From a virus: 64,000 bases of DNA. Location: the IMG/VR virus record IMGVR_UViG_3300012953_000016, positions 1 to 64,000 of that record; one strand, given 5' to 3'. Shown in pieces: positions 1 through 51,219 of this stretch (position 1 is the first letter of the stretch; each line of letters opens with the position of its first letter). Below the pieces are notes generated by a model. That model had not been told where the DNA came from and searched no databases. It saw nothing but the letters and a program-made list of their open reading frames with translations. The position numbers and the translations under genes are program-made.

Positions 1-510
1 AAACCATGCTTCTGCTACAATTGCTTCCGGGGTACCGGCTGTGTATGCAAGGTGTGCAACTCCAGCTGGATCAGTAGCCCATAAAGCATCATAGTCTTCC
101 TGAGATATCGATTCACCACCTTCTTCCCCACCAGGAGATCCTTCAACGGCAGCCGTTATTAAAGCGTTGTCGACTGTGACGATGGCGGTATCAAATTGGC
201 CGTCGCCTGTAGTATCCTCCATTTGCATTGATTGCAAGAAATTTGAAGTAGTTATGATGGCAAAGCTATCGCTTTCATCATATCCGCTAGAAAAATCATG
301 GCCTGGTGGGAAAAGTACTACAAACCCTTCAGAATAGTCGGAAAGGGAAAGAGGTACAATCTCACTCTCATCACCCGCTAAAAACTCATCTGGTTCAAGG
401 TTTTGAGGATTAAAGACCGGTATGGATTCGGTAGATATTAGATTTCCACCATTATCATTGTCAACTAACGCAAACGAAAAATCGGAACTATTGTTAATAA
501 TTAAAATCAT
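1..510 (-). CDS. Acidic virion-type protein, N-terminal part (runs off window edge)
   Basis: Not in the ORF track. ATG at 510 with AAGGA SD; open for 170 codons to base 1 (MILIINNSSDFSFALVDNDNGG...AIVAEAWF); D/E-rich with no K or R; late motif at 667-673. Confidence 0.75.
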   Translation of the reverse strand, partial: MILIINNSSDFSFALVDNDNGGNLISTESIPVFNPQNLEPDEFLAGDESEIVPLSLSDYSEGFVVLFPPGHDFSSGYDESDSFAIITTSNFLQSMQMEDTTGDGQFDTAIVTVDNALITAAVEGSPGGEEGGESISQEDYDALWATDPAGVAHLAYTAGTPEAIVAEAWF

Positions 511-666
511 TTTATTTTTTCCTTTTTTTTGACAACACACACGTGTTGCCTGTTCACATTAACTTAGTTAAACTAAACTGTGACTAATAAAGGAAAATAA
601 CTGGAACTTTAAAGACTAACGAACTTATCTAAAGGATGTACATGGAGTATCCTCGTTAACAACGTA

Positions 667-673
667 TAAGTAT
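667..673 (-). promoter_or_regulatory. Putative late promoter motif ATACTTA
   Basis: Matches the ATANNTA motif found upstream of most virion genes in the window. Confidence 0.5.
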
Positions 674-752
674 GTTAAAGGGATTATGTAAGCCTTTAGA
701 GTTTCAAATTCTTGTTCATTATTTACGAAATAAACCACTAACCATCACGCAT

Positions 753-860
753 AAAAAAACAGTCATAAAGTATTGTCTTAAAAAAAACTAACTTTGACTG
801 TTCTAACGGGAAACTAGGATGTTTCAACCAACGTATTCAACGACGATTAATGCTCGTCGA
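753..860 (-). ncRNA. Candidate small structured RNA (three hairpins ending in a U tract)
   Basis: Late motif at 864-870; stems at 841-859, 807-830 and 758-802; U7 at 753-759; no ORF. Confidence 0.4.
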
Positions 861-863
861 ATA

Positions 864-870
864 TAAATAT
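864..870 (-). promoter_or_regulatory. Putative late promoter motif ATATTTA
   Basis: Most common form of the recurrent motif; no ORF directly downstream. Confidence 0.5.
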
Positions 871-878
871 TCAGCTCA

Positions 879-1118
879 TTACGATTTATACAGAATTTTT
901 TTCAAATTTCTCACATTATTATCAAACTGACAACATTCTGAGCTAAGGAACTCTACTGATTTCTGCCGGCATTCATCATTAGGGTCATCAAACTCAAAAT
1001 AAAACCGACCGTCAGACAAACGCTTACAATCAATCAACTTAAACCCATGGGTCTGTAAATACGCCGCAATTGCAATGTCAGACGTAACGAATGTTTTATT
1101 AGTACCTAAAGTTGACAA
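879..1118 (-). CDS. DUF5659-like small protein
   Basis: TSDIAIAAYL...G...RFYFEF pattern; TTG start with AGGAG SD; late motif at 1161-1167. Confidence 0.6.
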   Translation of the reverse strand: MSTLGTNKTFVTSDIAIAAYLQTHGFKLIDCKRLSDGRFYFEFDDPNDECRQKSVEFLSSECCQFDNNVRNLKKILYKS

Positions 1119-1207
1119 ACCTAAACTCCTCTAGAAGTTTCTAAAAAATGCTTACGATACTAAGTATTGCGCATATTAGTATCTTGCCTGGTTATCTATA
1201 GAGATAT

Positions 1208-4157: not shown

Positions 4158-4760
4158 TTACTCAAAATCTATTTCAACGTCAACCTTAATATTGATCTTA
4201 GGAACCCTGACATGATTTACAATGCCATGCTTCTTTGCTTCTGCTGCATCCATAAACCAATCAGCATGCTTTTTCGTGAAAACCTTCTTCTTAAAATAGT
4301 CGTCTTTTTTTCCACAATTTCTTGCCATCATCGTAAATATCTTTTCATCTAAACGTTCAGCTTCTTTAACATCAGCCTTGAGCTCTTCAATCTTTCCAAA
4401 GCCACCGCTGCTAACGTCATGAATCATGATGGTTGCATCAGCATCTGCAAACCGCATGCCATCCTCCCCAAAAGTAAGTAAAACGGCCCCGCAGGACATT
4501 GCCTTACCCTCGACGATTGTTGCAACAGGAAGCTCAGAGTTCTTAATCGCACTAACCATAGTCATAAGACTATATACTTGACCACCATAAGAATCGATAA
4601 TTACAGGAATTACCTTCTGGCCGGTGTTGTGTGCTTGAGCAATCTCTAGCTGAAACTTGTTTGCAGAATCTTCATCAAATTTATTGACCCTGATAATTAC
4701 AGGTTGCTTTCTTAGTTCGATCTCCTTAATAAGAGGAGATATTTTTGTTGTCCACTTCAT
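4158..4760 (-). CDS. clpP: ClpP-like ATP-dependent protease proteolytic subunit
   Basis: IDSYGGQV, GKAMSCG (catalytic Ser), IMIHD (His), WFMDAAEA...G. Start set at the ATG at 4760 with GGAG SD. Confidence 0.88.
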   Translation of the reverse strand: MKWTTKISPLIKEIELRKQPVIIRVNKFDEDSANKFQLEIAQAHNTGQKVIPVIIDSYGGQVYSLMTMVSAIKNSELPVATIVEGKAMSCGAVLLTFGEDGMRFADADATIMIHDVSSGGFGKIEELKADVKEAERLDEKIFTMMARNCGKKDDYFKKKVFTKKHADWFMDAAEAKKHGIVNHVRVPKINIKVDVEIDFE

Positions 4761-4770
4761 TAGTTCTCCG

Positions 4771-7227
4771 TCAACTACACTTACTATGACCACACGAAGT
4801 ACAGGCTACGCAACCCTCTTGATAAACCAATGAATCTTCTGCGCTACAATGTTCACACACTGTCTTGCCTGGCTTGGTGCCGTCGATGATATAATTTTTA
4901 AGTACCCTTGCAATAACCTTCGAAAAGCTAAACAAATCTGCATCTCTATCTTTCTGCAATTGTTCTACTACATAATGGATAGGGGCTCCGTGGCGAAGTG
5001 CAAGGGAGATTGTTCTTGTAAAAGCCGAATGGTTAGGGTTGTCAAAAAGAGATACAACATCCCTTAAGATAACCTCATCTCCATTCTCACCGAAATGTAA
5101 GTCATATACAGAATTCCTAGACTTTCTTGGGTGCTTTACTATTTTTCCTGTTTTATATTTCTTTGGGATCTCAACAAACTTTGACAAGCCACCTATAATC
5201 TCATATGGTTGGTTATCAAGTTTTCCTACTAAGATTGTCCATGCCTCACCCTTAATATTTGCATTATGGATTGTACAGTCAACCTCAAGCGGCCGCTTTG
5301 GTGCTGAGTGGGGTTTGAATGCATCTTCTTTCTCTGTCTTTGAAACCAAAACGCCAGTCCGAGATCCATCCCTATAAACAGTTACCCCTTTGCAGCCAGT
5401 CTCCCAGCCTGTCATGTATATATCTTTAACTGTTTCTACCTTAGTTTCATTAGGGATATTTGTTGTATTTGAAATAGCATGACAAATCCACTTCTGGGCA
5501 ACGGATTGCATCTTTACCTTCTGGACCCAATCAATCTCAGTTGCAGTAGCACCGGCATAAGGTGATTCTTCAATCTTAGACAAGCCGGTTATACTCATCC
5601 ACTTTTTGAACCCGTGATGGTAAACATCATATTCCTGCCATTTGTCACCTGAGTCGTCAACAAAATCAATACGAGCATTTACATCGGTTTCTGTCAGCTT
5701 TTTTCTTCTAGTATATTTCAACATGTAAGCCGGCTCGATACCTGATGTTGTTTGAGTCAATGTTGAAACAGAACCGGCTGGGGCGGTTGTTGTCAATGCG
5801 ATATTTCTTCTTCCTGTCTCTTTATTCATCCCATATATGTCAGGGGCCTCTTCCCAGATCCTATTCAAAAATGGGTGCTCCATTTCTCTTTCATGATCAT
5901 GGACTGGGAAGGCACCTCGTTCCTTTGCCATAACACATGAAGAACGGTATGCATTAACTGCTAGGGTTTTATAAAATTGTTCTACAATTTCGATAGAGGC
6001 GTCAGATCCGTATCTCACCCCTAATGCTGCCAAGGCATCGCCTACGCCTGTAACGCCTAACCCAGTTCGGCGACCATTTTGCGCCTGAGATTTTATCTTG
6101 GTCCAAAGGTTTTTCTCAATAGCCTTAACTTCATCAGGCTCAGGATCATCCTTGATCTTCTTTAAGATCTTATCAACTTGCTCAACTTCGAGATCAACCA
6201 TATCATCCATTAAGCGTTGGGCCTGCTGGGTTACCTCTGCTAACTTGTCGAAGTCAAATTTGGCCTCGGGGGTAAATGGAGAGCTAACGAATGAATATAA
6301 GTTAAGAAGCATCAACCGACAGCTATCATACGGGCTCAAAATAATCTCGCCACATGGATTTGTAGAACTTGATGCAAAGCCCTCGTCAGAATATAGATCT
6401 GCAGGAGTTAATGAGGTTGCAGTATCCCAAAATAATAAACCAGGTTCTGCGCATGCATGTGCAGAAGAAATAATCTCATCCCAAACTTCTCTAGCATTTT
6501 CGTTGTATGAAACCTCAGGCTCTGTTGAATCAACAGGCCAGCGTTGCTGGTATTCACTGTTGTTTTTTACTGCATCAAGAAACTCATCAGATAACCTTAC
6601 TGAAATGTTCGCTCCTGTGACCCTGCTTAAATCCCTTTTGATCTTTACAAAATCCATCACTTGTGGGTGATGAACAGAGATTGTCAACATTAATGCGCCG
6701 CGGCGACCATTCTGCGCGACTTCGCGACATGAATTTGAGAACCTATCCATAAAGACCTCAATCCCGTCTGTCGTCCTTGCACAATTACCGGTTGATCTAC
6801 CCTTCGGGCGGATGGTCGATATATCAAACCCAACGCCTCCGCGGCGCTTAGCAATTTGAACAAGCTCTTGATCTGTCTTAAGAATGCCGCCGTAAGAGTC
6901 ATGGGGAGGTTCAATAACAAAACAATTTGATACTGACTGGATCTGGAATGGATTTCCAACACCCGACATAGGTGATCCTTGAGGCACAACGTACTTAAAG
7001 TCCTTGAACAAATTATAGATCTGTTCTTCTGACATAGGGTTTGGGTACTTACCTTCTATCCTTGCGAATTCCCTTGACAGGCGTCGATGCATATCATCTG
7101 GTGTGTTCTCATGTAAGTTGCCGTCACGATCAATCAACGCATACTTAGAGACGAATACGTTCGCTGCTAAGTCATCCCCATTAAAGTATTGTAACGACTT
7201 TCCAAATGCTTCATCAAATTTTACCAT
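4771..7227 (-). CDS. nrdJ: Class II (adenosylcobalamin-dependent) ribonucleotide reductase
   Basis: SNCFV, RGGVG, TNPCGEI, SCRL, RRTGLG, APAGSVS, CKGVTVYRDGSR; C-terminal TSCPD-like domain and CxxC...CxxC Zn ribbon; no beta subunit nearby. Confidence 0.92.
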   Translation of the reverse strand: MVKFDEAFGKSLQYFNGDDLAANVFVSKYALIDRDGNLHENTPDDMHRRLSREFARIEGKYPNPMSEEQIYNLFKDFKYVVPQGSPMSGVGNPFQIQSVSNCFVIEPPHDSYGGILKTDQELVQIAKRRGGVGFDISTIRPKGRSTGNCARTTDGIEVFMDRFSNSCREVAQNGRRGALMLTISVHHPQVMDFVKIKRDLSRVTGANISVRLSDEFLDAVKNNSEYQQRWPVDSTEPEVSYNENAREVWDEIISSAHACAEPGLLFWDTATSLTPADLYSDEGFASSSTNPCGEIILSPYDSCRLMLLNLYSFVSSPFTPEAKFDFDKLAEVTQQAQRLMDDMVDLEVEQVDKILKKIKDDPEPDEVKAIEKNLWTKIKSQAQNGRRTGLGVTGVGDALAALGVRYGSDASIEIVEQFYKTLAVNAYRSSCVMAKERGAFPVHDHEREMEHPFLNRIWEEAPDIYGMNKETGRRNIALTTTAPAGSVSTLTQTTSGIEPAYMLKYTRRKKLTETDVNARIDFVDDSGDKWQEYDVYHHGFKKWMSITGLSKIEESPYAGATATEIDWVQKVKMQSVAQKWICHAISNTTNIPNETKVETVKDIYMTGWETGCKGVTVYRDGSRTGVLVSKTEKEDAFKPHSAPKRPLEVDCTIHNANIKGEAWTILVGKLDNQPYEIIGGLSKFVEIPKKYKTGKIVKHPRKSRNSVYDLHFGENGDEVILRDVVSLFDNPNHSAFTRTISLALRHGAPIHYVVEQLQKDRDADLFSFSKVIARVLKNYIIDGTKPGKTVCEHCSAEDSLVYQEGCVACTSCGHSKCS

Positions 7228-29965: not shown

Positions 29966-32900
29966 TTATACTTCCATACCGGCGTTTGTAACAACAAAAT
30001 CAAGAGAGATGAATTCAACAGTCCTTGTGGGCTGGAGGAATATCTTACCTCTAACAGTATTGTTCTCAATATCCGCCTGTGTGGTAGTAGTAGTGTCAAT
30101 TACAACTTTAAACTTATCAAGCCCTTGCTGCTGTTGGATTCTTTGCAGGATCGGATTAACAGCCGCAGAGAAGCGCCCTAATGTTTCTTCCCTATTAGGT
30201 TCGAACAATAGATTGTTTCCAGCTTTACGAACTTCACGACGAATTTCAATAAGAAGTCGTCTAACATTAACTCTGTCTAAAGCAGATTGTGCCTGCTGTA
30301 GTGTCTTCTGGCCCCATACAACAACTCCAGGAGTGTGCGGGAAGGCAGCCAGAGGATTCACATCAGACTCATATAAGGTATCAAGGTTCCTACGGCTTAA
30401 TTTAACCTGTGTTTCAACAACAGATTTAAGTGCGCCTCGGGAGAACCCTGCCGGTGCAAACCATGGGTGAGCAATTGAGTCATTCAAGGAGAATGCGCCA
30501 AGTACTGCGACTGATGGTGGGCACTGTACATTTATACCTAATGCAGGATCGGTGATTACAACATCTGGGAAGTAGGCTGCTGCGAAAGATGAGTCGAGAT
30601 TTCTACCTGCAAGTTCCTCAACTGTTAGACTAACGCTTGGCTTCTGTAATGAATAATCAATCATTAGATCATTATTCACTGCCTTCTCTTCGATATCCAT
30701 AATATACATTGCGTCGAATCGATCTTCTACAGCATCGATCGCATAATCTGTAATTGCTTCTTCTCTCATGCCCGGGACGGCAAGTAGCTTAATGTCAACG
30801 TCAGCCTTCTCAGCCATGACATCTACTGCTTTTCTAAATGCAGCAACTGTGCTACCTTCAACGCCACCCTGGTCTGCATCATCCATTTCCCAAACAGCAG
30901 CTCTATTTGAAAGTGACCGCTTCTCTTTATTGAAGGTATTTGTTCCATCAAATCCTCCCTGTAAGAAGAATGAGAACTTCATGAATCTTCTGGTAGAAGA
31001 ATCAGCCATGTCAGTTTGTGGATCAAGGAACCTTGCACTAACTGTGGGTGTACCTGAAATTAAGCCATCATCCGTAACGTCACCGGATGGTACCAGCGAT
31101 ACTAAGGACGAAGATGAATCAAATACATTTAAGCCTTCTAGCGTTGTAACATCTAAGTTTAGCTTCCCATCCCTACGATACTCAGCAACGGCCCATTGTT
31201 TATGATCAACCTTACCGGAAACGTTTGGATTCTTTGAGCTTACAACAGTTGGACGTTTCGAAACAATTTGGATTCTCTCAAGTGAGAAAAAGTTGTTGTT
31301 GAATCTATCGCTGTCTTGTACTGAGGTACCGTCTGCGATGTCTTTTACGCCGGCGTTATCACCTACAGAAACATCTGGTTGCGAGCTGGTTGAATTCTTC
31401 CGAAGGGTTGGGAAATATTTTCCATGTGATAAAATAGAATCATTAAACTTAACGTTTTTATTAGGTTCATCATTATCATCAACAACCTGGAAGTGTGTAC
31501 CCCAGCAAAGTTGGGCCGAGGCTCTTTTCTTAGGCCCGGTACCCGTAGCAATTGTGCTTCTCATTGGTACTGGAGGCTCGACTGCATCATTTAAGATTGA
31601 GTCCTGCGCGGGATTGCTAAGGGAATCAATAGCACTAAGTCCGTCTTGTAAGAATCGTAATCCACCAGGTCCTGGTTGTCTTGCATCTGTGTTTAAGTGG
31701 TGATATCCACGGTAGCCCATTGGAAGTGCATCACTTGGCACCCCACCTGAGTCTACTCGAGGATCCATCTCTACGCGAATGAATTTTGAACGTGCGGGGT
31801 GGATGCCGTCAACAACAAGCTTTTGAGACCCAGGCCTTTTATCAAAATCATAATACATGTATTGATCACCAATAACTCTGGCGATATATCTGTCAGATTG
31901 TGGGTTCAAGTCTAGACCGAGGAACTTTTCATATACTCGAGGTGTATTGTCATCATCGGCAATGTCTCGAACATGTACATCAAAGGTCCCATGACCTCCT
32001 GAGGAACTCATTAAAACATTTGCAATGGTAATCTTAAACTTACCGGACCCTGCCATCCCATCATCAAGTGCGTGGAGGCGGAAGAGGTTCTTTGGTTTTG
32101 CACCATAAACTTGTGAAACTACCCATGGAGATTTTGCAGTGCGGAATCTGTCCCTGAAGTCTTCAAAGCATGGTTCATCGCCAAGCCCTGTGACATCGCT
32201 TGTTTTTCCATGGATCAAGAATACTGCAGCCGCTTGATCTGTTCCACCCATTGCTGCATGATTATCTTCTATCTCATGGCCAGAAACTCGAGCTGCATCG
32301 TTATATACATTATAGTGTGCATATACGTAGTGGCCGGCCTTCTCCGCACAAGCTGAATCATGATTTAGAATGTTCATGAAGTAATCTGGTGCTTGTGGAT
32401 CTAGGCTACATGTAATACTGCTTGGATATTCATCCGAATCAATATGACCGTTTAATAATAGGGTAAATCTTTCTTGTGATTTGTCTAGACCAGTTACCAA
32501 CCCTAGTTCACCACCCTGTGCGTTTGCTCCGCCGGCGGTGACGTGCGCGGCAAGTGGTGCGGACGGTGTTAATCCGGCATTGTCATCTGCATGACATACA
32601 AGCGATGCATGGACACCCTGGGGTGTCATAAGGACCGCTCTAATAATTGGTACCGCTCTATCAAGTGGAGCCAGACCAGAATCCGAGGTCACTGCAGAGG
32701 TGTTTATCCCTGCATCAAGCCAGTGCTTATGAGAAACATCACCCTCAGTTGAGTCTCCGCCACCAGAGAAATTTAGTACCGAACCTGTAAGCCCTGCCAC
32801 ATCTGTTCCGGGTGCGCCACCATCATCAGATGAATCATCATCAAAAGCCACTGCAGCAGTACCTGCTTCAACAGCAGTAGCAACTAAATCTGAGTCCCCA

Positions 32901-34915
32901 AGATTTGTACCCACTGTATCAGCAGGGGCAGTAGCGATACCTAAACTAAGATAATCAATTGTAACAGTAGCTGTGTCTATAGATGTGGTTACCTCTAGTG
33001 AGCTAGCTGCGATAAGAGCTTCAATCCTAGTTGCCATCTGAGCCTCTGTCTGAGCAGTAACACCACCCGAGAAGTTTACAGAACCATTTAGTGAGAAGTC
33101 ATCTAGATCTTCAAAGTTTGTACCCACTGGAGTATTACCGCCAGAACCAGCGGTTCCTTGAGTAAGATCAACATTAGTACCATTTACTGCGGCACTGATA
33201 TCGATTGCAGAAGCATTGATACATGTTACTAAGTCTTGGGCTGCACTAACTCCAGCAGCGGAATTAATATTCAACGTACATGTGAAGTTTGGTGATATCC
33301 CTCCCGCTACCTCAACAGGATCTCCTGGGAGGCCAGCAAGGGCGGTGATTGTAAGGGTATCTCCGGCTGTGTCCGTAATCGTAACAGTATCAGGGTTATT
33401 GGCTAAAATTGATGCGGGTGCACCATCTGTTATAATAGTTGCTGTTGCTACAGCATCCTCAGCACAACTTACCTCATTGGCACCTGGGGTCTCATCCTTC
33501 GTGAAAACAATTACTAGACTATTTCCAGCAAGATCAGTAACCGTAAATGACTCTGCAGCTGCAAAGGATGTGGCTGGGTTTGCAACTTCAATCGTGTGCT
33601 GTGCATGGCTTCCGCCTGAAGCAAGAGCACCTGTTTCGCCAAAATTTCCTGCAATACCATCCTTATCTTGTGTTATAACAAGGTCATCGCCATCTGCAGA
33701 AAGTGTAACCCCTACGCTCATAGCAGGAACTGCTGCAGCTGATGCTGCAACTACTCTTTCAGCTAATTCGCTTGCAGTAAATTCAGCACCACCCCAGCCA
33801 GATAAATTTTCTCTAATATCTGTATCTGCTGCGTCTAACAAGAGAAGGTGGCCGCCGATGAATGCGCCGCCATCTGGTTCATCAGATGGATTCCCGAATA
33901 CATCAGTTGTCAAGTTAACATCTGCACCAACTGCCACAGCAGTTATTTGGATTGGGGATGCGGTAATAGAAGCTGCAATCTGTATTGCAATATTTTCCGC
34001 AGTATCAGGTGCGCCGGCGCCATTATCAATATCAACCACTGTAGGGGATGTGAAGTCGCCAACAGCTCCGCCGCCTAATTGAAATTGGGCTTGCCATTGC
34101 CTGGTATCAGTAACTGCAGGATCTGGATCTATATCAACATCTGTTAGTTCAACATAGAGACCCTCCATGGTGTTGTTATCAACACGTAAGACCGCGTTAC
34201 CACGTGAACCGACAGAAACAAAGATGTTTTTTGCATCTTCAAAATCGTTTAGGTCATTCGTAAGTGCTGGTTGACCGGCTGATGTTAGGTTATCCGGGCC
34301 TTCATGGAACCAAATTGTTCCTAGACCCCCATCGGAATCGGTTATCGTAATTGCAAAACCTTTCTCATCTTGAGCAACTAGTTCTGCAGGTACAAATGAG
34401 GTTGGATCAAATGTTAACCTAGCAACAGCAGCTGCCTCGCCATCAGATGCATAATTTTCCCTCATCATTGCGCCGAGGAAGAATGTTCGGCCAGCACAAG
34501 GCTGGTCACCGGCATCGTCATATGCATATGGGTTGATCCCTAATTGCCCGCCACCTGGATTGTCAGTATCCTGAGGTAGCTCTGTACCAACAACGAATCC
34601 CGCGTTCGTAACCGCACCGGTGCTGGAATCTCTCTTCGCTGCATCACCGACCCCGAGTACTCGGACGTATGTACCAGCTCGAGCATTTTTCATCCACTCG
34701 TTCATAGCAAGAGGACCGAACTTCTTTCCGTCGGTACCTCCGAATTCTGCCACAAAATCTTTCCATGTGGCAACAGTAACAGGGACAAATGCTGGTCCCT
34801 TTTGGGCGGTACCAATGACCCCTGCCGGTACCCCTTGTGGCTTAATAGCCGTAGGTCCGCTTAAGTCTATTTCTCTGGTACTTACCCCAGCACTCTTAAA
34901 TGTAAGTTCAGCCAT
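29966..34915 (-). CDS. Tail sheath protein 2 (gp18-like, large acidic insertions)
   Basis: SAGVSTREID, KGPAFVP, PWFAPAGFSRG, VVWGQKTL, LDRVNVRRLL, LQPTRTVEFISLDF; late motif at 34954-34960. Confidence 0.92.
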   Translation of the reverse strand: MAELTFKSAGVSTREIDLSGPTAIKPQGVPAGVIGTAQKGPAFVPVTVATWKDFVAEFGGTDGKKFGPLAMNEWMKNARAGTYVRVLGVGDAAKRDSSTGAVTNAGFVVGTELPQDTDNPGGGQLGINPYAYDDAGDQPCAGRTFFLGAMMRENYASDGEAAAVARLTFDPTSFVPAELVAQDEKGFAITITDSDGGLGTIWFHEGPDNLTSAGQPALTNDLNDFEDAKNIFVSVGSRGNAVLRVDNNTMEGLYVELTDVDIDPDPAVTDTRQWQAQFQLGGGAVGDFTSPTVVDIDNGAGAPDTAENIAIQIAASITASPIQITAVAVGADVNLTTDVFGNPSDEPDGGAFIGGHLLLLDAADTDIRENLSGWGGAEFTASELAERVVAASAAAVPAMSVGVTLSADGDDLVITQDKDGIAGNFGETGALASGGSHAQHTIEVANPATSFAAAESFTVTDLAGNSLVIVFTKDETPGANEVSCAEDAVATATIITDGAPASILANNPDTVTITDTAGDTLTITALAGLPGDPVEVAGGISPNFTCTLNINSAAGVSAAQDLVTCINASAIDISAAVNGTNVDLTQGTAGSGGNTPVGTNFEDLDDFSLNGSVNFSGGVTAQTEAQMATRIEALIAASSLEVTTSIDTATVTIDYLSLGIATAPADTVGTNLGDSDLVATAVEAGTAAVAFDDDSSDDGGAPGTDVAGLTGSVLNFSGGGDSTEGDVSHKHWLDAGINTSAVTSDSGLAPLDRAVPIIRAVLMTPQGVHASLVCHADDNAGLTPSAPLAAHVTAGGANAQGGELGLVTGLDKSQERFTLLLNGHIDSDEYPSSITCSLDPQAPDYFMNILNHDSACAEKAGHYVYAHYNVYNDAARVSGHEIEDNHAAMGGTDQAAAVFLIHGKTSDVTGLGDEPCFEDFRDRFRTAKSPWVVSQVYGAKPKNLFRLHALDDGMAGSGKFKITIANVLMSSSGGHGTFDVHVRDIADDDNTPRVYEKFLGLDLNPQSDRYIARVIGDQYMYYDFDKRPGSQKLVVDGIHPARSKFIRVEMDPRVDSGGVPSDALPMGYRGYHHLNTDARQPGPGGLRFLQDGLSAIDSLSNPAQDSILNDAVEPPVPMRSTIATGTGPKKRASAQLCWGTHFQVVDDNDEPNKNVKFNDSILSHGKYFPTLRKNSTSSQPDVSVGDNAGVKDIADGTSVQDSDRFNNNFFSLERIQIVSKRPTVVSSKNPNVSGKVDHKQWAVAEYRRDGKLNLDVTTLEGLNVFDSSSSLVSLVPSGDVTDDGLISGTPTVSARFLDPQTDMADSSTRRFMKFSFFLQGGFDGTNTFNKEKRSLSNRAAVWEMDDADQGGVEGSTVAAFRKAVDVMAEKADVDIKLLAVPGMREEAITDYAIDAVEDRFDAMYIMDIEEKAVNNDLMIDYSLQKPSVSLTVEELAGRNLDSSFAAAYFPDVVITDPALGINVQCPPSVAVLGAFSLNDSIAHPWFAPAGFSRGALKSVVETQVKLSRRNLDTLYESDVNPLAAFPHTPGVVVWGQKTLQQAQSALDRVNVRRLLIEIRREVRKAGNNLLFEPNREETLGRFSAAVNPILQRIQQQQGLDKFKVVIDTTTTTQADIENNTVRGKIFLQPTRTVEFISLDFVVTNAGMEV

Positions 34916-34963
34916 TGTGTTTTGCTCCTACCTGTTCAAAAACTTGTCTATTATAGGTATTCA

Positions 34964-37900
34964 TTACTCGAACATTACGCCGCTTCTAGTGATGATAAAG
35001 TCAATTGCAATGAACTCGATTGCTCGAGTCGGTACAACGACGATCCTACCATTTAGCCTGTTGCTTTCGTAATCCTCTATTGTGTTATTTGTATCGTCCA
35101 TGACAACTTGGAATGATTCAATACCTGCCTGAGCCTGTACCAACGCGAGAAGCGGGGTAACAGAACCAACGAACCGAGCCCTTGTTTGTGGGGTATTAGG
35201 TTCGAACAGAATATTGTTAGCAACGCTTACAACCAGTCTCTTAACTTCAAGAAGCATTCTGCGTACGTTCACTCTATCAAGTGCAGATTTTTGCATCTGC
35301 AATGTCTTTTGTCCAAAGATAACGAAACCGGCATTTGGGAATACAGCTATAGGATTAATTCTAGAATCGTATAGTGTATCTCTATCACCAGCTGTTAGCC
35401 TTGTTGTTACGTTAGAAACCATTTCTAATGCACCTCGATTAAAACCTGCTGGTGCGAACCAGGGGTAAGCAACCTTGTCATTAAATGCCAGGGAAGCGAG
35501 GGCTGCAATAGATGCAGGAACTCTAACTTTAAGATTATTAATTGGATCATCAATCCAAACATCCGGGAAGTATGTTGCGCAATAGTTGTTGTCAAACGCT
35601 CTATTCTCAAATGTCTCAGCAGTATACTGTACATCTGCTTTCTTGGAATCCTGTAAAGGCTCACCCAAGAAGAGGCGACCTTGATTTTCATCATAATAAG
35701 GAATATCCATTAAGTAAATTGCTTTTGAATATGCCTTCGTTCGCTCAGCAGCTAAATCAGTTACAAATTGATCTCTAATTCCTGGAATACAAAGGATGTT
35801 TGTATTTACAGTCATCGTGTCCGTCATCATTTCTACTGCGGCACGATAAGATGCAATAACATTATTTCTCTTGCCAGACCCATTAGTGTTTGATACTTCA
35901 TTATCACCGGTACTGTTGGTACCTGCTGGTGCATCAGAGAAGTGGATTAGCCCATCATCGGTCCAGCCTTCAGTTGCCTTTCCAACAACATCGCCTGAAG
36001 TTGAAACGTTATCTTGATCTCCAGACTCGGTAGAGCTAGCTCTATCATTCATTAATGCAACATCAGGATCTAGTATGTTCAGCCCATCGAAGCCACCATA
36101 AAACACAGTTGAGAATTTTGCCCAGCTGCTGAATCGGTTAAAAGCAACCTTATCATTTTGAAGTAATGATGCCAGGGTAAGACGTCCGGGTGCACCCAAT
36201 AATGCGTCTTCAATTGTATAATCAGATTCATCAAGAGTACCATCTCTCATATAAGCAGCTGATCTCATGTGGATGCTGGCTGGCTCAGTAACATTTTCGC
36301 TAATGCTTTGTGCAACTGAATGTTGATCATGTTGTTCAAGCAATGCAACCTTTGCTAGTGAGAATTTGTTGTTTCCTAGCTCGTCTGCGTCAGCCCCAGT
36401 TACCACTGTACCAAGCTCAGAAATTCCTTGGAACTTCGTGTATGCTTTAACAAGTGGATTCGGTGAGGAAGAAACATTAGTATTTAACACTGCTGCCGAT
36501 CCGGACTCACCTTCATTAGGACATCTTTCAAACTTAACTCCCCAGTAGAATCTCGAATCAGCTCTCTCATTCGCACCTAAGTGACCAACATAATCCTGGT
36601 CGCCTGGAATCAAAGGATCCACACCAGCAGAAATGTTTCCGCGGGAGCACTTAAACCTGAAGGGAAGGGGAGGTACTAACGACTGGACCGGAGCACCAGC
36701 TGTAATAAGGGTGGTACCATTCCAGAACTGTAGTCTGCTACCATCGGAACCATCTACTAATCCTTCGTTCATATTTACGACTGGTATACCCTTAAATCCA
36801 AATGGCAGCATGTCTTTCGGGATGCATGAATCTCGCCCATCGATTAGGGGGTTCATCACTACCCTTGCGACCGCACTGCGGTTAGGATACTTTCCAGATA
36901 TTACTAATCTGCGTTCATCAGCATCATCAGCATCAAAATCAAAAGATACGTTATAGTCACCAATTTGACGTGCAACATAACGATCACTATCTGGATCTAG
37001 GTTACAGTCAGGGTATGCTTCAATAACTTCCTTATCTAAGTCAGTATCGCCGAATCTACGAATTTGAACTTCGAAAGTTCCATATTCATAGCTGGGATCT
37101 GTACTGGCTCTTAAGTTAGCAATCGATACCTTGAACCTGCTGTTAGGGTAACTACCATCATCTAACGCCTCAAGGCGGAATAGATCATACTCTGTGGCGC
37201 CATAAGGTTGTGAAATTATCATAGGCGTAGTTGCAGTCTTATATCTAGTGTCGAAACGACCAAATAATTGAGACCAATGTGCCTGCAAGTCAGACTCACC
37301 ATCTTCTGTTGTACCGCCACCAAGGGCAGCGGCAACATCGGCATCATCGGTTACGGCCTGGCGACCTCTGCATAATGTTATACTGTCAGCTAGCGCAACA
37401 GGGGTTGAGTCAAGAATAACATCACCGCCATCATCATCACCATCAGTACTAAACGTTCGGCCTGCCATGGCAATTTCATCTTCAACAGCATAATCACACC
37501 ATAGAACATGTTCATATTCCTGGAAACGTGATGGGTCTGTGTTTAAGATCTTTCCAATATATGCAGGTGAGGTTGGGTTTAACGAGGCGGAGAGGATTCT
37601 TAATCCTTCAAAATTGTCGTCAAGTCCAAAATTTTCACCAGCAGATGAAGAAATGATAAGCTTAAAAATACCATCATCATCTGGAGTGATCTGTTGATCA
37701 CCCACAGTCGTTATGTGGGTGACTGGATCATCACCTGTAATAATAATCCTAGAGCCGGATGCAACCATAATACTTGCGCGAAGCAAGTTGACTGTACCTA
37801 AAACGTTAGGTGTTCCACCATCACTATCATGATCCCAGTCCGAAGGGTCAAAAGAATCATTATCAGTAAAGATTGGGAATCCTTCTGCCTCTCTTGGTCG

Positions 37901-38362
37901 TACAGTGTGGCGTGCAACTAAGAATTGAATACCACCTTGTAAATCGTCATCGGTATCTTCGCCCCCAGGTAAACTGGCGACTGCAACACCTTCGATGTTA
38001 ACATCAATACCATCATTAACCTGTACAGAAAAGCCGGCGTTCTTTACGATGCCGTAGCTCTCAGTATTGCTAATCTCAGTCCCTGATTCATTTGATCCAG
38101 CGCCTAAAACACGCATGTAGGTAACGGCCTTACGGTGCTTCAGAAATTCTCTGACAGCATAAGGTCCGAAACGGTCTGGATCAAGACCACCAAATTTTGT
38201 TTCAAAGTCCGCAAAAGATCCTACAGTCACTGGTACAAAGGCAGGCCCTCTTGTTGCAGTCCCGATAATTCCTGCAGGGGTGCCAGTTGGCGATTGTTTT
38301 CTCGCGGATAAGTCTATTTCCTGTTCAAAAAATCCAGGTGATCGGAATGTCTGTTCGGCCAT
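34964..38362 (-). CDS. Tail sheath protein 1 (gp18-like)
   Basis: SPGFFEQEID, RGPAFVP, PWFAPAGFNRG, IFGQKTL, LDRVNVRRML, PTRAIEFIAIDF; late motif at 38398-38404. Confidence 0.92.
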   Translation of the reverse strand: MAEQTFRSPGFFEQEIDLSARKQSPTGTPAGIIGTATRGPAFVPVTVGSFADFETKFGGLDPDRFGPYAVREFLKHRKAVTYMRVLGAGSNESGTEISNTESYGIVKNAGFSVQVNDGIDVNIEGVAVASLPGGEDTDDDLQGGIQFLVARHTVRPREAEGFPIFTDNDSFDPSDWDHDSDGGTPNVLGTVNLLRASIMVASGSRIIITGDDPVTHITTVGDQQITPDDDGIFKLIISSSAGENFGLDDNFEGLRILSASLNPTSPAYIGKILNTDPSRFQEYEHVLWCDYAVEDEIAMAGRTFSTDGDDDGGDVILDSTPVALADSITLCRGRQAVTDDADVAAALGGGTTEDGESDLQAHWSQLFGRFDTRYKTATTPMIISQPYGATEYDLFRLEALDDGSYPNSRFKVSIANLRASTDPSYEYGTFEVQIRRFGDTDLDKEVIEAYPDCNLDPDSDRYVARQIGDYNVSFDFDADDADERRLVISGKYPNRSAVARVVMNPLIDGRDSCIPKDMLPFGFKGIPVVNMNEGLVDGSDGSRLQFWNGTTLITAGAPVQSLVPPLPFRFKCSRGNISAGVDPLIPGDQDYVGHLGANERADSRFYWGVKFERCPNEGESGSAAVLNTNVSSSPNPLVKAYTKFQGISELGTVVTGADADELGNNKFSLAKVALLEQHDQHSVAQSISENVTEPASIHMRSAAYMRDGTLDESDYTIEDALLGAPGRLTLASLLQNDKVAFNRFSSWAKFSTVFYGGFDGLNILDPDVALMNDRASSTESGDQDNVSTSGDVVGKATEGWTDDGLIHFSDAPAGTNSTGDNEVSNTNGSGKRNNVIASYRAAVEMMTDTMTVNTNILCIPGIRDQFVTDLAAERTKAYSKAIYLMDIPYYDENQGRLFLGEPLQDSKKADVQYTAETFENRAFDNNYCATYFPDVWIDDPINNLKVRVPASIAALASLAFNDKVAYPWFAPAGFNRGALEMVSNVTTRLTAGDRDTLYDSRINPIAVFPNAGFVIFGQKTLQMQKSALDRVNVRRMLLEVKRLVVSVANNILFEPNTPQTRARFVGSVTPLLALVQAQAGIESFQVVMDDTNNTIEDYESNRLNGRIVVVPTRAIEFIAIDFIITRSGVMFE

Positions 38363-50613: not shown

Positions 50614-51219
50614 TTATTTCTCCCAATCCAGTATATCATTAAATAATCTATCAACTCTATCAGTTTTGTTAAAATGCTTTCGTAGATCTTTTTGTGATAC
50701 CGATTTTCCTTCGGCCATCATAAATGCGCCTGGTGTTGAAGGCTCAGAAACAAAATCCCAACATATAAGCTGGAAGTCGTCTTGTACGACATCATAATCA
50801 CCTTCATTTTTTGTTGAACCAACCCCACGGGAGGAAATTCCTAACGTCACACCAGATTCAACAAGGCTCTGGAGAATCTTTCCGCATGGTGTATCTAGCA
50901 ACTCCACGTTGCCATAACATACACCGTCGTCCATCCATGCCTCCCTAATAATGTGTGACACGTTCTTAAGTTCAACGACAGACGAGTCAGGGTGATCACA
51001 TTCACCTAGCGCTCGATTTTCTCGAATAAACTTTTGATAATTTCTTACTTCTCTCTCTAAGATAGGGAGAGGATATACACGGCCATTCTGATTGAGGGTA
51101 TCTGCTTTTTGCAAAATTCCCTTCATGACAATCTTACCACCATGTTTGTCTTTTGACTCCTGGATCATCTCTTTCGTATATTCAAAAGCAGTCCAGGCTG
51201 TTAACAGCTTACTCATCAT
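50614..51219 (-). CDS. Prohead protease (T4 gp21-like)
   Basis: NQNGRVYP, ALGECDHP, NVSH, LDTPCGKI, GISSRGVGS, DFVSEPSTPGA. Confidence 0.95.
   Translation of the reverse strand: MMSKLLTAWTAFEYTKEMIQESKDKHGGKIVMKGILQKADTLNQNGRVYPLPILEREVRNYQKFIRENRALGECDHPDSSVVELKNVSHIIREAWMDDGVCYGNVELLDTPCGKILQSLVESGVTLGISSRGVGSTKNEGDYDVVQDDFQLICWDFVSEPSTPGAFMMAEGKSVSQKDLRKHFNKTDRVDRLFNDILDWEK

Follow-up and report, generated by a model that had tools for sequence, protein, structure and literature searches.

A Conserved, Structured Non-Coding Cassette behind DUF5659 Genes in a Small Clade of Uncultured Marine T4-like Myoviruses

Behind a gene for a DUF5659 protein near the start of the IMG/VR virus record IMGVR_UViG_3300012953_000016, we find a compact non-coding unit that recurs, together with its fold, among relatives of this virus. 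The DNA analyzed here, called the window below, is the first 64 kb (positions 1 to 64,000) of that 123,515-nt record. On its minus strand, the spacer between the DUF5659 stop codon (881-879) and the ATG of the next gene (510-508) is 368 nt long, and the unit at its head carries, in order, a promoter-like box, two hairpins (H1 and H2), and a third hairpin (H3) that runs into seven U residues (Table 1). The unit is genuine: a structured non-coding cassette that a small clade of uncultured marine T4-like myoviruses has conserved, and that is undescribed in Rfam 15 as a sequence or structure family. Its most likely role, which we put forward tentatively, is that of a cis-acting leader or attenuator gating transcription into the variable gene behind it, the short RNA being a by-product.

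The three hairpins and the U run lie at the coordinates that a first-pass annotation of this DNA had given them, and a folding program finds the same three. Over 745-885, the minus strand folds with a dG of -30.5 (z-score -2.17; six of 200 shuffles are equally stable), and the trimmed unit, 753-862, has a z-score of -4.50, with none of 200 shuffles equally stable; the opposite strand of the unit folds less well (-22.5, z-score -1.55). The stem of H3 leads directly into the U7 on the transcribed strand, as an intrinsic terminator requires, and five to eight U residues are kept in all copies. H3 was missed by a consensus terminator scan, its loop being longer than the 3–8 that the scan allows. 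In the window the outer stem of H3 has 8 bp with three G-C pairs, few by the standard of E. coli, in a phage that is itself low in G+C; copies of the unit have 32%–40% G+C. H3 and its U run are shaped like an intrinsic terminator, at which transcription would be expected to end. Rfam 15 gave no match at E-values up to 10 inside 511-878 and none at E-values up to 1 in ten related loci, in agreement with the first-pass proposal of an undescribed RNA, and no tRNA or tmRNA was found. The unit also lacks an ORF, as had been noted: the list of open reading frames (ORFs) has none of at least 30 aa on the minus strand within 739-878. A hidden small peptide, in the unit or past the U run, was considered and rejected, the short frames from (A/G)TG varying in length and sequence between relatives (by eye). 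In most copies, the bases right behind the U run are (A/G)TG(C/T)GT (window 753-745; also L022, L005, L006, L037, and L115, the L numbers being our labels for related loci). This motif is too short, and its frame too variable, for a gene; it may be terminator context or a further signal.

Searches with the DUF5659 protein yielded seven IMG/VR loci and 15 metagenome loci, and in the close ones the spacer is homologous as well. A covariance model, R1, was built from seven units, which score 96–134 bits against it. Outside this training set, R1 matches L034 (46.2 bits, E-value 1.6e-6), L006 = L024 (45 bits, E-value 1.5e-6), L005 (38.6 bits, E-value 2.7e-5), and L037 (25.7 bits, E-value 0.019), and it also finds a copy at a second site of G001, the record that contains L006 (G001:451-614; 25.2 bits, E-value 0.01). 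Conservation in homologs is therefore borne out, with 11 distinct full-length units at DUF5659 loci (the window's own, REF, and L018, L019, L020, L022, L004, L021, L006, L005, L034, and L037) and one further copy that is cut by a contig end (L002 = L016 = L017 = L031). A family-alignment search supplied 80 IMG/VR DUF5659 loci of 55%–99% identity; seven of them match R1 (L031-L037), and 73 do not at E-values up to 1. The unit is thus a property of one sub-clade and not of DUF5659 loci at large. The unit is present once in the window's 123,515-nt record and twice in G001, a relative of 108,871 nt. An exact-pattern scan of IMG/VR for the H3 arm returned seven stretches in a first run, one a true copy (L010 = L003) and six chance matches in coding DNA, and six stretches in a second run, three already known and three new. 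The pattern matches L119, L120, and L122 were rejected as new copies, R1 not having confirmed them.

What precedes the unit is not always the DUF5659 gene. In L005 and L006, DUF5659 and the unit are separated by a gene of 127–130 aa, and in G001 the second copy comes after a 458-aa gene. At that second site (L115, G001:C1, 451-640, minus strand), the ATATTTATA box lies within the loop of an inverted repeat of ~17 bp right behind the stop of the 458-aa gene; after the inverted repeat come more hairpins, then ACAGUC...GGCUGU-U7, and, ~60 nt on, the next ribosome site.

All three hairpins are present in every unit folded whole (ten units). The z-scores of nine units are -4.50, -2.63, -4.32, -4.69, -1.77, -4.62, -1.90, -3.79, and -3.68, with 0, 4, 0, 0, 8, 0, 7, 0, and 0 of 200 shuffles, respectively, folding at least equally well (zero in six of the nine); L034 has a z-score of -2.79 (3/200 shuffles) and L037, over 220 nt, one of -2.81 (1/200). 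The stems of H2 read GAAAC/GUUUC, GGGCU/AGCCC, GGGC/GCCC, UGAGCGU/ACGCUCA, GAGAC/GUCUC, UGGCC/GGCCG, UGGCC/GGUCA, AGUCU/AGACU, GUCUC/GAGAC, and AGAUUAUC/GAUAAUUU. Its outer four pairs have eight distinct 5′ arms among the ten units, and arms exchanged between units pair fully in five of 90 combinations. H1 has nine distinct 5′ arms among the ten, each pairing with its own 3′ arm, and here too exchanged arms pair fully in 5/90. The arms of H3, ACAGUCAA.. and ..GRCUGU, are near-invariant together with the bases that precede them, and this part of the unit can be written CCGUUAG.. ACAGUCAA(A)GUU .. G(A/G)CUGU, followed by U5-U8 and often by (A/G)UG(C/U)GU. The sense strand folds 7–17 kcal/mol lower than the antisense strand in 10/10 units, with three to eight G-U pairs in each, and the outer stem of H3 contains a U-G pair in eight of the ten, which would be a C-A mismatch on the other strand. 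The molecule under selection is therefore the sense RNA.

The box at the head of the unit (864-870) had been read in the first-pass annotation as a late motif. As a recurrent box it is real; as a late promoter of the T4 kind it was rejected. The consensus of the gp55-dependent T4 late promoter is TATAAATA, and the sense strand at 870-862 reads ATATTTATA; TATAAATA occurs here on the plus strand only (862-869), from where T4 promoter spacing would place a start at ~875. We treat the plus-strand TATAAATA as a coincidence, because relatives do not preserve TATAAATA there and the rest of the record makes no use of it, its four sense matches all lying inside genes. For ATAYTTA, eight of 24 sense matches in the record fall in gene-boundary windows, which make up 9.5% of the record (binomial p = 0.0012), in a census that leaves out the two boxes in the studied spacer and uses crude gene calls (longest ORFs); among antisense matches, one of 15 falls there. 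The eight boundary boxes stand 23–63 nt ahead of gene starts. Relatives of the window, distant ones included, have a comparable box 17–45 nt ahead of the DUF5659 start, and the box at 864-870 is kept ATAYTTATA-like in every relative carrying the unit. ATAYTTA is, then, a real recurrent upstream box of this phage, of a class other than the T4 late promoter. It is promoter-like, and would presumably act as a promoter. A second box lies past the terminator in the window, with a -35-like hexamer upstream of it (Table 1), and the same pair (TTTACA, 13 nt, box) is found in L018, L019, and L020. A sigma-70 scan called no minus-strand site in 600-900, and 7-mer enrichment in upstream windows singled out no promoter. 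A search of the record for RNA polymerase (PF00940) gave no match, but its control matched no genome, so this answer is empty.

On the reading we favor, in which we infer promoter activity, termination, and control by read-through, RNA polymerase would start at the box or arrive from DUF5659, make a folded leader of ~105–125 nt, and mostly stop at H3. The variable gene would be reached by read-through only or, in the window's clade, by way of the second box, which lies ~190 nt behind the first. The lambda 6S RNA, a by-product of that phage's late promoter, would be the parallel for the short terminated RNA. H3 could be a fixed, leaky attenuator that holds a minor virion or accessory protein at low dose, or it could be a conditional one. 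Five copies (L005, L006, L034, L037, and the second one in G001) have no second exact box before the next gene, and in these the distance from the U run is short: ~40 nt to AAGGAG and ATG in L005 and L006, ~45 nt in L037, ~60 nt in the second copy of G001, and ~95 nt in L034. The downstream gene in these five copies thus appears to be transcribable only through H3, and it is this placement of the unit, directly before the next gene and with no second exact box between, that leads us to read it as a cis-acting leader.

The unit might instead be a structured 3′ untranslated region (UTR) of the DUF5659 message, its hairpins protecting the mRNA and H3 ending the operon, with the box inactive at this place. 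This would suit a unit that starts 1 nt past the stop codon and whose box has no -35-like hexamer, and in six of seven close relatives the minimum-energy fold pairs GAGCUG after the stop with bases ahead of H2, so that the box is shut into a stem. However, the different genes that precede the unit in L005, L006, and the second site of G001 indicate that it travels with the downstream side, and the box is kept in every copy though nothing codes there; we therefore hold the 3′ UTR to be improbable. The short distances to the next gene also bear on a free, trans-acting small RNA (sRNA), for which the box would fire, H3 would terminate efficiently, and an RNA of ~110 nt would bind a protein or another RNA, no copying of the leader being involved. 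The order of box, hairpins, and terminator is conserved, the sequence in and beside the 5′ arm of H3 is invariant beyond the need of a plain terminator, and the second box with its -35-like hexamer, past the terminator in the window's clade, means that the unit could be a closed transcription unit and the gene could have an entry point of its own. Such an sRNA is nonetheless doubtful, as the unit abuts the next gene in five copies, H1 and H2 keep their shape and not their sequence, which leaves no obvious conserved seed outside the terminator, no target was found, and the unit is single-copy and has no Rfam relative. Of the discrete sRNA that the first-pass annotation had proposed, what stands is that a conserved box-hairpin-terminator unit makes an RNA of ~105–125 nt plausible.

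Contigs of a marine metatranscriptome add little here. One RNA-library contig (X1 record 3, 701-840) spans H3 and extends over 31 nt beyond it in either direction. This is weak evidence that molecules continuing past H3 exist in that RNA library, and these could be DNA. Further metatranscriptome contig pieces fall on the leader, on the beginning of the downstream gene, and on DUF5659. There is no contig over 847-874; the piece from 875 is preceded by Illumina adapter letters and the piece to ~846 is followed by adapter-like letters, and we draw no conclusion from this gap or from depth. X1 and X2 share their contigs, and thus do not count as independent (shares of words 0.05–0.18). Nor can the uncovered stretch 1259-2072 serve as a control, since relatives conserve the gene there poorly.

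Several points weigh against a gated leader. The RNA runs are Logan contigs, from which strand, ends, and level are not readable, and DNA in the library is possible. A second box stands behind the terminator in REF, L018, L019, and L020, and less clearly in L022, L004, and L021, so read-through is not needed in the window's clade. By eye, the first box has no -35-like partner, whereas the second box has one; the first may thus not fire, and the unit would then be a 3′ UTR. A profile search of the record for sigma-70 region 2 (PF04542) gave no match, the record being a fragment estimated to be 36% complete, and neither an alternative (antiterminator) pairing nor a regulator was found. As to the structure itself, the self-pairing of H1 and H2 is true by construction, because the stems were read from each sequence's own fold; independent support for the structure comes from the shuffle z-scores and from the presence of a hairpin at the same place in every unit. 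RNAalifold on a plain MAFFT alignment recovered 12 pairs only, two of them with compensatory changes, because that alignment misplaces the stems of L004 and L021 and hairpin H2. Per-sequence folds and the covariance model were used instead of a plain-alignment consensus, and even in the alignment that was fitted to R1, H2 is still out of place in L004, L021, L005, and L006. The 11 related sequences are too few for a formal covariation test.

The first-pass annotation had gone further and proposed, subject to comparison with shuffled sequence, that the sRNA copies the leader of the next gene and, as a decoy, traps an RNA-binding regulator (perhaps the DUF5659 protein) that tunes fiber synthesis. 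The plus-strand motifs from which it argued do occur twice in the same order: AACTTT at 605 and 790, CTAACG at 616 and 803, AGGATGT at 633 and 816, and CAACGTAT at 660 and 829. Sharing of this extent is nevertheless at chance. The best collinear chain of shared words of at least six letters between 511-757 and 758-878 comes to 33 bases, against 25.1 +/- 6.0 in dinucleotide shuffles, 238 of 2,000 of which reach 33. A local alignment of unit and leader scores 20 against 18.3 +/- 2.8, a score reached by 250 of 1,000 shuffles. In relatives, the chain is at chance in 7/7 spacers and the local alignment in 6/7, the exception being L022 (reached by 11/500 shuffles, uncorrected for seven tests), and the shared motifs are lost. 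Mimicry of the leader is thus refuted by the comparison with shuffles on which the annotation itself had made it depend. One motif, GTTAG, is over-represented in the spacers: nine homologous spacers contain 20, where the shuffle mean is 6.8 and the maximum in 300 shuffles is 16. This excess is partly shared descent, one conserved site being counted in each relative.

The protein named as the possible regulator is a clear member of the PF18903 (DUF5659) family, as had been surmised (E-value 4.1e-10, 39.8 bits against a cut-off of 23.6; residues 7-77 cover profile positions 1-74 of 75). The family itself has no assigned function, and a full-text search found the name DUF5659 in no paper of the library covered. 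Public metagenomes contain 95 homologues of 43–139 aa (71–85 aa in 92 of the 95), most with PF18903. The structure is predicted with confidence (pLDDT 90.6) and has the order beta-alpha-beta-beta-alpha-alpha. With this model, Foldseek found nothing in the PDB at E-values of 0.001 or below (best E-value 0.1), and the best hit of the VIA wide fold search (Z 5.2) lies within background; a PDB sequence search with the protein found nothing at E-values up to 10. Its charge is near-neutral, with a pI of 6.5, in a family whose median is 7.7 and in which nine of 49 members exceed 8. Spacers behind DUF5659 are long for phage genomes, though R1 matches only 7/80 loci: the median distance to the next ORF of at least 60 aa is 106 nt, with at least 100 nt in 39 of 73 loci and at least 200 nt in 18 (crude ORF calls). 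These spacers are a lead toward a regulatory role rather than evidence for one. The over-represented GTTAG, the common long spacers, and the presence of all four motifs are what the decoy has in its favor. Against it stand the chance level of the ordered sharing, the 73 of 80 loci with no unit, a near-neutral protein with no informative fold match, and a downstream gene that is not shown to encode a fiber. These observations lend no support to DUF5659 as an RNA-binding regulator, and we give the decoy hardly any credence.

There is another way in which DUF5659 could be involved. The cassette might be the RNA component of a switch by which marine T4-like phages control host-recognition genes through antitermination, a phage protein, possibly DUF5659, letting the polymerase through. 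The box would then fire constitutively and H3 would stop nearly all transcripts, until the protein bound the invariant stretch around the 5′ arm of H3, CCGUUAG..ACAGUCAA(A)GUU. We consider this very unlikely. If true, DUF5659 would gain its first function, and late control in T4-like phages a logic that resembles lambda Q or Bgl.

The gene behind the unit is cut off by the contig end, and Pfam and PHROG searches with its 170-residue fragment (1-510) gave no family match; its description as a fiber gene in the first-pass annotation could thus not be substantiated. Among eight downstream proteins, two of 28 pairs are similar, and the counterparts in relatives are unrelated to the window's own protein. 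Laminin_G_3, which has a concanavalin-like lectin fold, is found in the downstream protein of L020 (E-value 2.4e-29) and L005 (E-value 3e-10), and weakly, below the cut-off, in that of L018. A gene that differs in almost every relative and is lectin-like in some is likely to encode a host-recognition or decoration protein. By eye, the variable gene's ribosome site has a hairpin 8–25 nt ahead of it both in the window and, in differing sequence, in L018, L019, L020, L022, and L004. The window's record and at least six related contigs (L002, L003, L004, L005, L019, and L022) end 60–1700 nt behind DUF5659. This looks like a strain-variable hot spot, and it fits assemblies breaking in a strain-variable gene.

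Such variability raises the possibility that the unit acts at the level of DNA, as a recombination cassette whose conserved promoter/terminator stretch lets unrelated genes swap in behind it. Here one must consider the promoter-early stem-loops (PeSLs), cassettes of T4-type phages on which Arbiol et al. reportedly worked in 2010. PeSLs are described as composite promoter/terminator cassettes at indels in variable regions (Comeau, Arbiol, Krisch 2014, PMC4122927), and by position and make-up they appear to be the closest known system. Like them, the unit is a conserved non-coding T4-like stretch that combines a promoter-like box with a stem-loop/terminator, at the edge of genes differing between close relatives. 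PeSLs are short, have a sigma-70-type -35/N17/-10 early promoter and one stem-loop, and occur in series through variable regions. In contrast, the unit is 126–160 nt long and has three hairpins, and its box, which precedes the terminator, belongs with those that stand ahead of virion genes. Nor is there a sigma-70-type early promoter, the first box having no -35 and the scan no site in 600-900, and instead of many copies there is one in 123,515 nt and two in G001. A recombination cassette would be consistent with the unrelated downstream genes, with the ending of many relatives' contigs behind DUF5659, and with the identities among relatives, which are 63%–99% for DUF5659 as against 23%–47% for the 298-aa protein upstream of it (an exact-peptide search of IMG/VR found no relative of the 298-aa protein). 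But one to two copies per at least 100 kb is unlike a series, and selection on RNA is indicated by the pairing retained in H1 and H2 and by the G-U pairs of the sense strand, which makes a cassette of this kind, as the whole explanation, quite unlikely. It is compatible with a cis-acting leader, and, being conserved beside a swapped gene, the cassette may also serve as a homology arm for the exchange of that gene.

Two other phage systems resemble the unit in part. At the lambda late promoter PR′, the 6S RNA ends at the terminator tR′, which is read through under protein Q. The succession of a promoter, a short terminated non-coding RNA, and genes behind it reached by read-through would be the same in L005, L006, L037, L034, and the second copy of G001. 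Unlike lambda, the window's clade has a second box past the terminator, and no Q-like protein or qut-like site was identified in the record, a fragment in which no search for Q-like proteins was made. The put RNAs of HK022 are two stem-loops in the nascent phage transcript just ahead of terminators, conserved in shape over sequence. The likeness here is looser, and lies in two hairpins whose shape is kept more than their sequence; no sequence or model match to put was found (Rfam gave none in the window or in ten related loci), and the adjacent hairpin, H3, would here itself be the terminator and has the most conserved arms. The timing of virion genes in T4-like phages is attributed chiefly to classes of promoter, and this group is not known for structured, terminator-ended leaders ahead of late genes. 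We would class the unit as a phage intergenic promoter/terminator leader.

Table 1. Features of the Studied Spacer and Its Surroundings, and ATAYTTA Boxes of the Record
Feature	Position	Strand	Description
Whole conserved non-coding unit	753..878	(-)	126 nt, stop codon to end of U run; model R1 120.3 bits
First box, ATATTTA	864..870	(-)	9 nt behind stop codon; promoter-like
Hairpin H1	834..862	(-)	Core CGACGA/UCGUCG 859-854/846-841; minimum-energy fold has 9-bp register, 862-854 with 842-834
Hairpin H2	810..825	(-)	GAAAC/GUUUC, 825-821/814-810
Hairpin H3 and U7	753..802	(-)	AACAGUCA/UGACUGUU 802-795/765-758, then U7 759-753; intrinsic-terminator-like end
Second box, ATACTTA	667..673	(-)	-35-like CTTACA 692-687, 13 nt upstream
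Leader of next gene	511..752	(-)	Hairpin GGCAACAC/GUGUUGUC 550-531, A-rich AAGGAAAA ribosome site, ATG 510-508
Downstream variable gene, 5′ part	1..510	(-)	170 codons; runs off contig end
DUF5659 gene	879..1118	(-)	79 aa, TTG start, TAA stop 881-879; ORF list and Pfam PF18903
Box ATACTTA	1161..1167	(-)	49 nt before DUF5659 start
Box	29304	sense	Before hub gene
Box	29950	sense	Before tube gene
Box	38404	sense	Before a sheath gene
Box	41769	sense	Before adaptor-like gene
Box	47345	sense	Before 591-aa gene of head block
Box	56200	sense	Before gene preceding terminase
Box	69213	sense	Before gene at 69.2 kb

The record that contains the window has no end repeats, and nearly all of its genes (crude calls, taken as the longest ORFs) lie on the minus strand. 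PHROG matches include, for replication and recombination, a UvsX-like recombinase, a gp32-like single-stranded DNA-binding protein, a DnaB-like helicase, a primase, and an SbcC-like nuclease subunit and, for the virion, terminase, portal, major head protein, tail sheath, tube, baseplate hub, and tape measure. By major head protein, the closest GenBank phages are one uncultured phage of 484 kb (51% identity across the matched region) and Flavobacterium phage vB_FspM_immuto (48.5%), followed by cyanophages (~31%–34%). These matches point to a distant T4-like myovirus as the source; a blastn search of 400-1300 against GenBank phages gave no match.

Other parts of the record also have unusual features. 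Two tandem minus-strand genes (window 29966-34915 and 34964-38362; 1649 and 1132 aa) each carry a C-terminal tail-sheath domain (phrog_23, E-values 2.8e-55 and 2.6e-57) behind a long N-terminal part with no match, and such a duplicated, extended sheath gene (29966-38362) is unusual. Head-maturation proteases are matched at two separate places, 4158-4793 and 50614-51219, both on the minus strand; one of these genes is ClpP/S49-like and adjoins a ribonucleotide reductase gene, and the other lies within the head block. Outside the window, G000:C1:92399-93132 (734 nt) is the record's longest stretch with no ORF of at least 50 aa (crude calls).

Should the unit be no more than a terminator with stabilizing hairpins, it would be an ordinary feature whose main use is that of a new RNA motif in annotation. 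It also supplies a defined RNA partner with which the function of the widespread DUF5659 family can be tested. The unit directly adjoins a gene that is different in nearly all relatives, and if it does gate or dose that gene, it would offer a handle on the regulation and exchange of host-range genes in uncultured marine phages.

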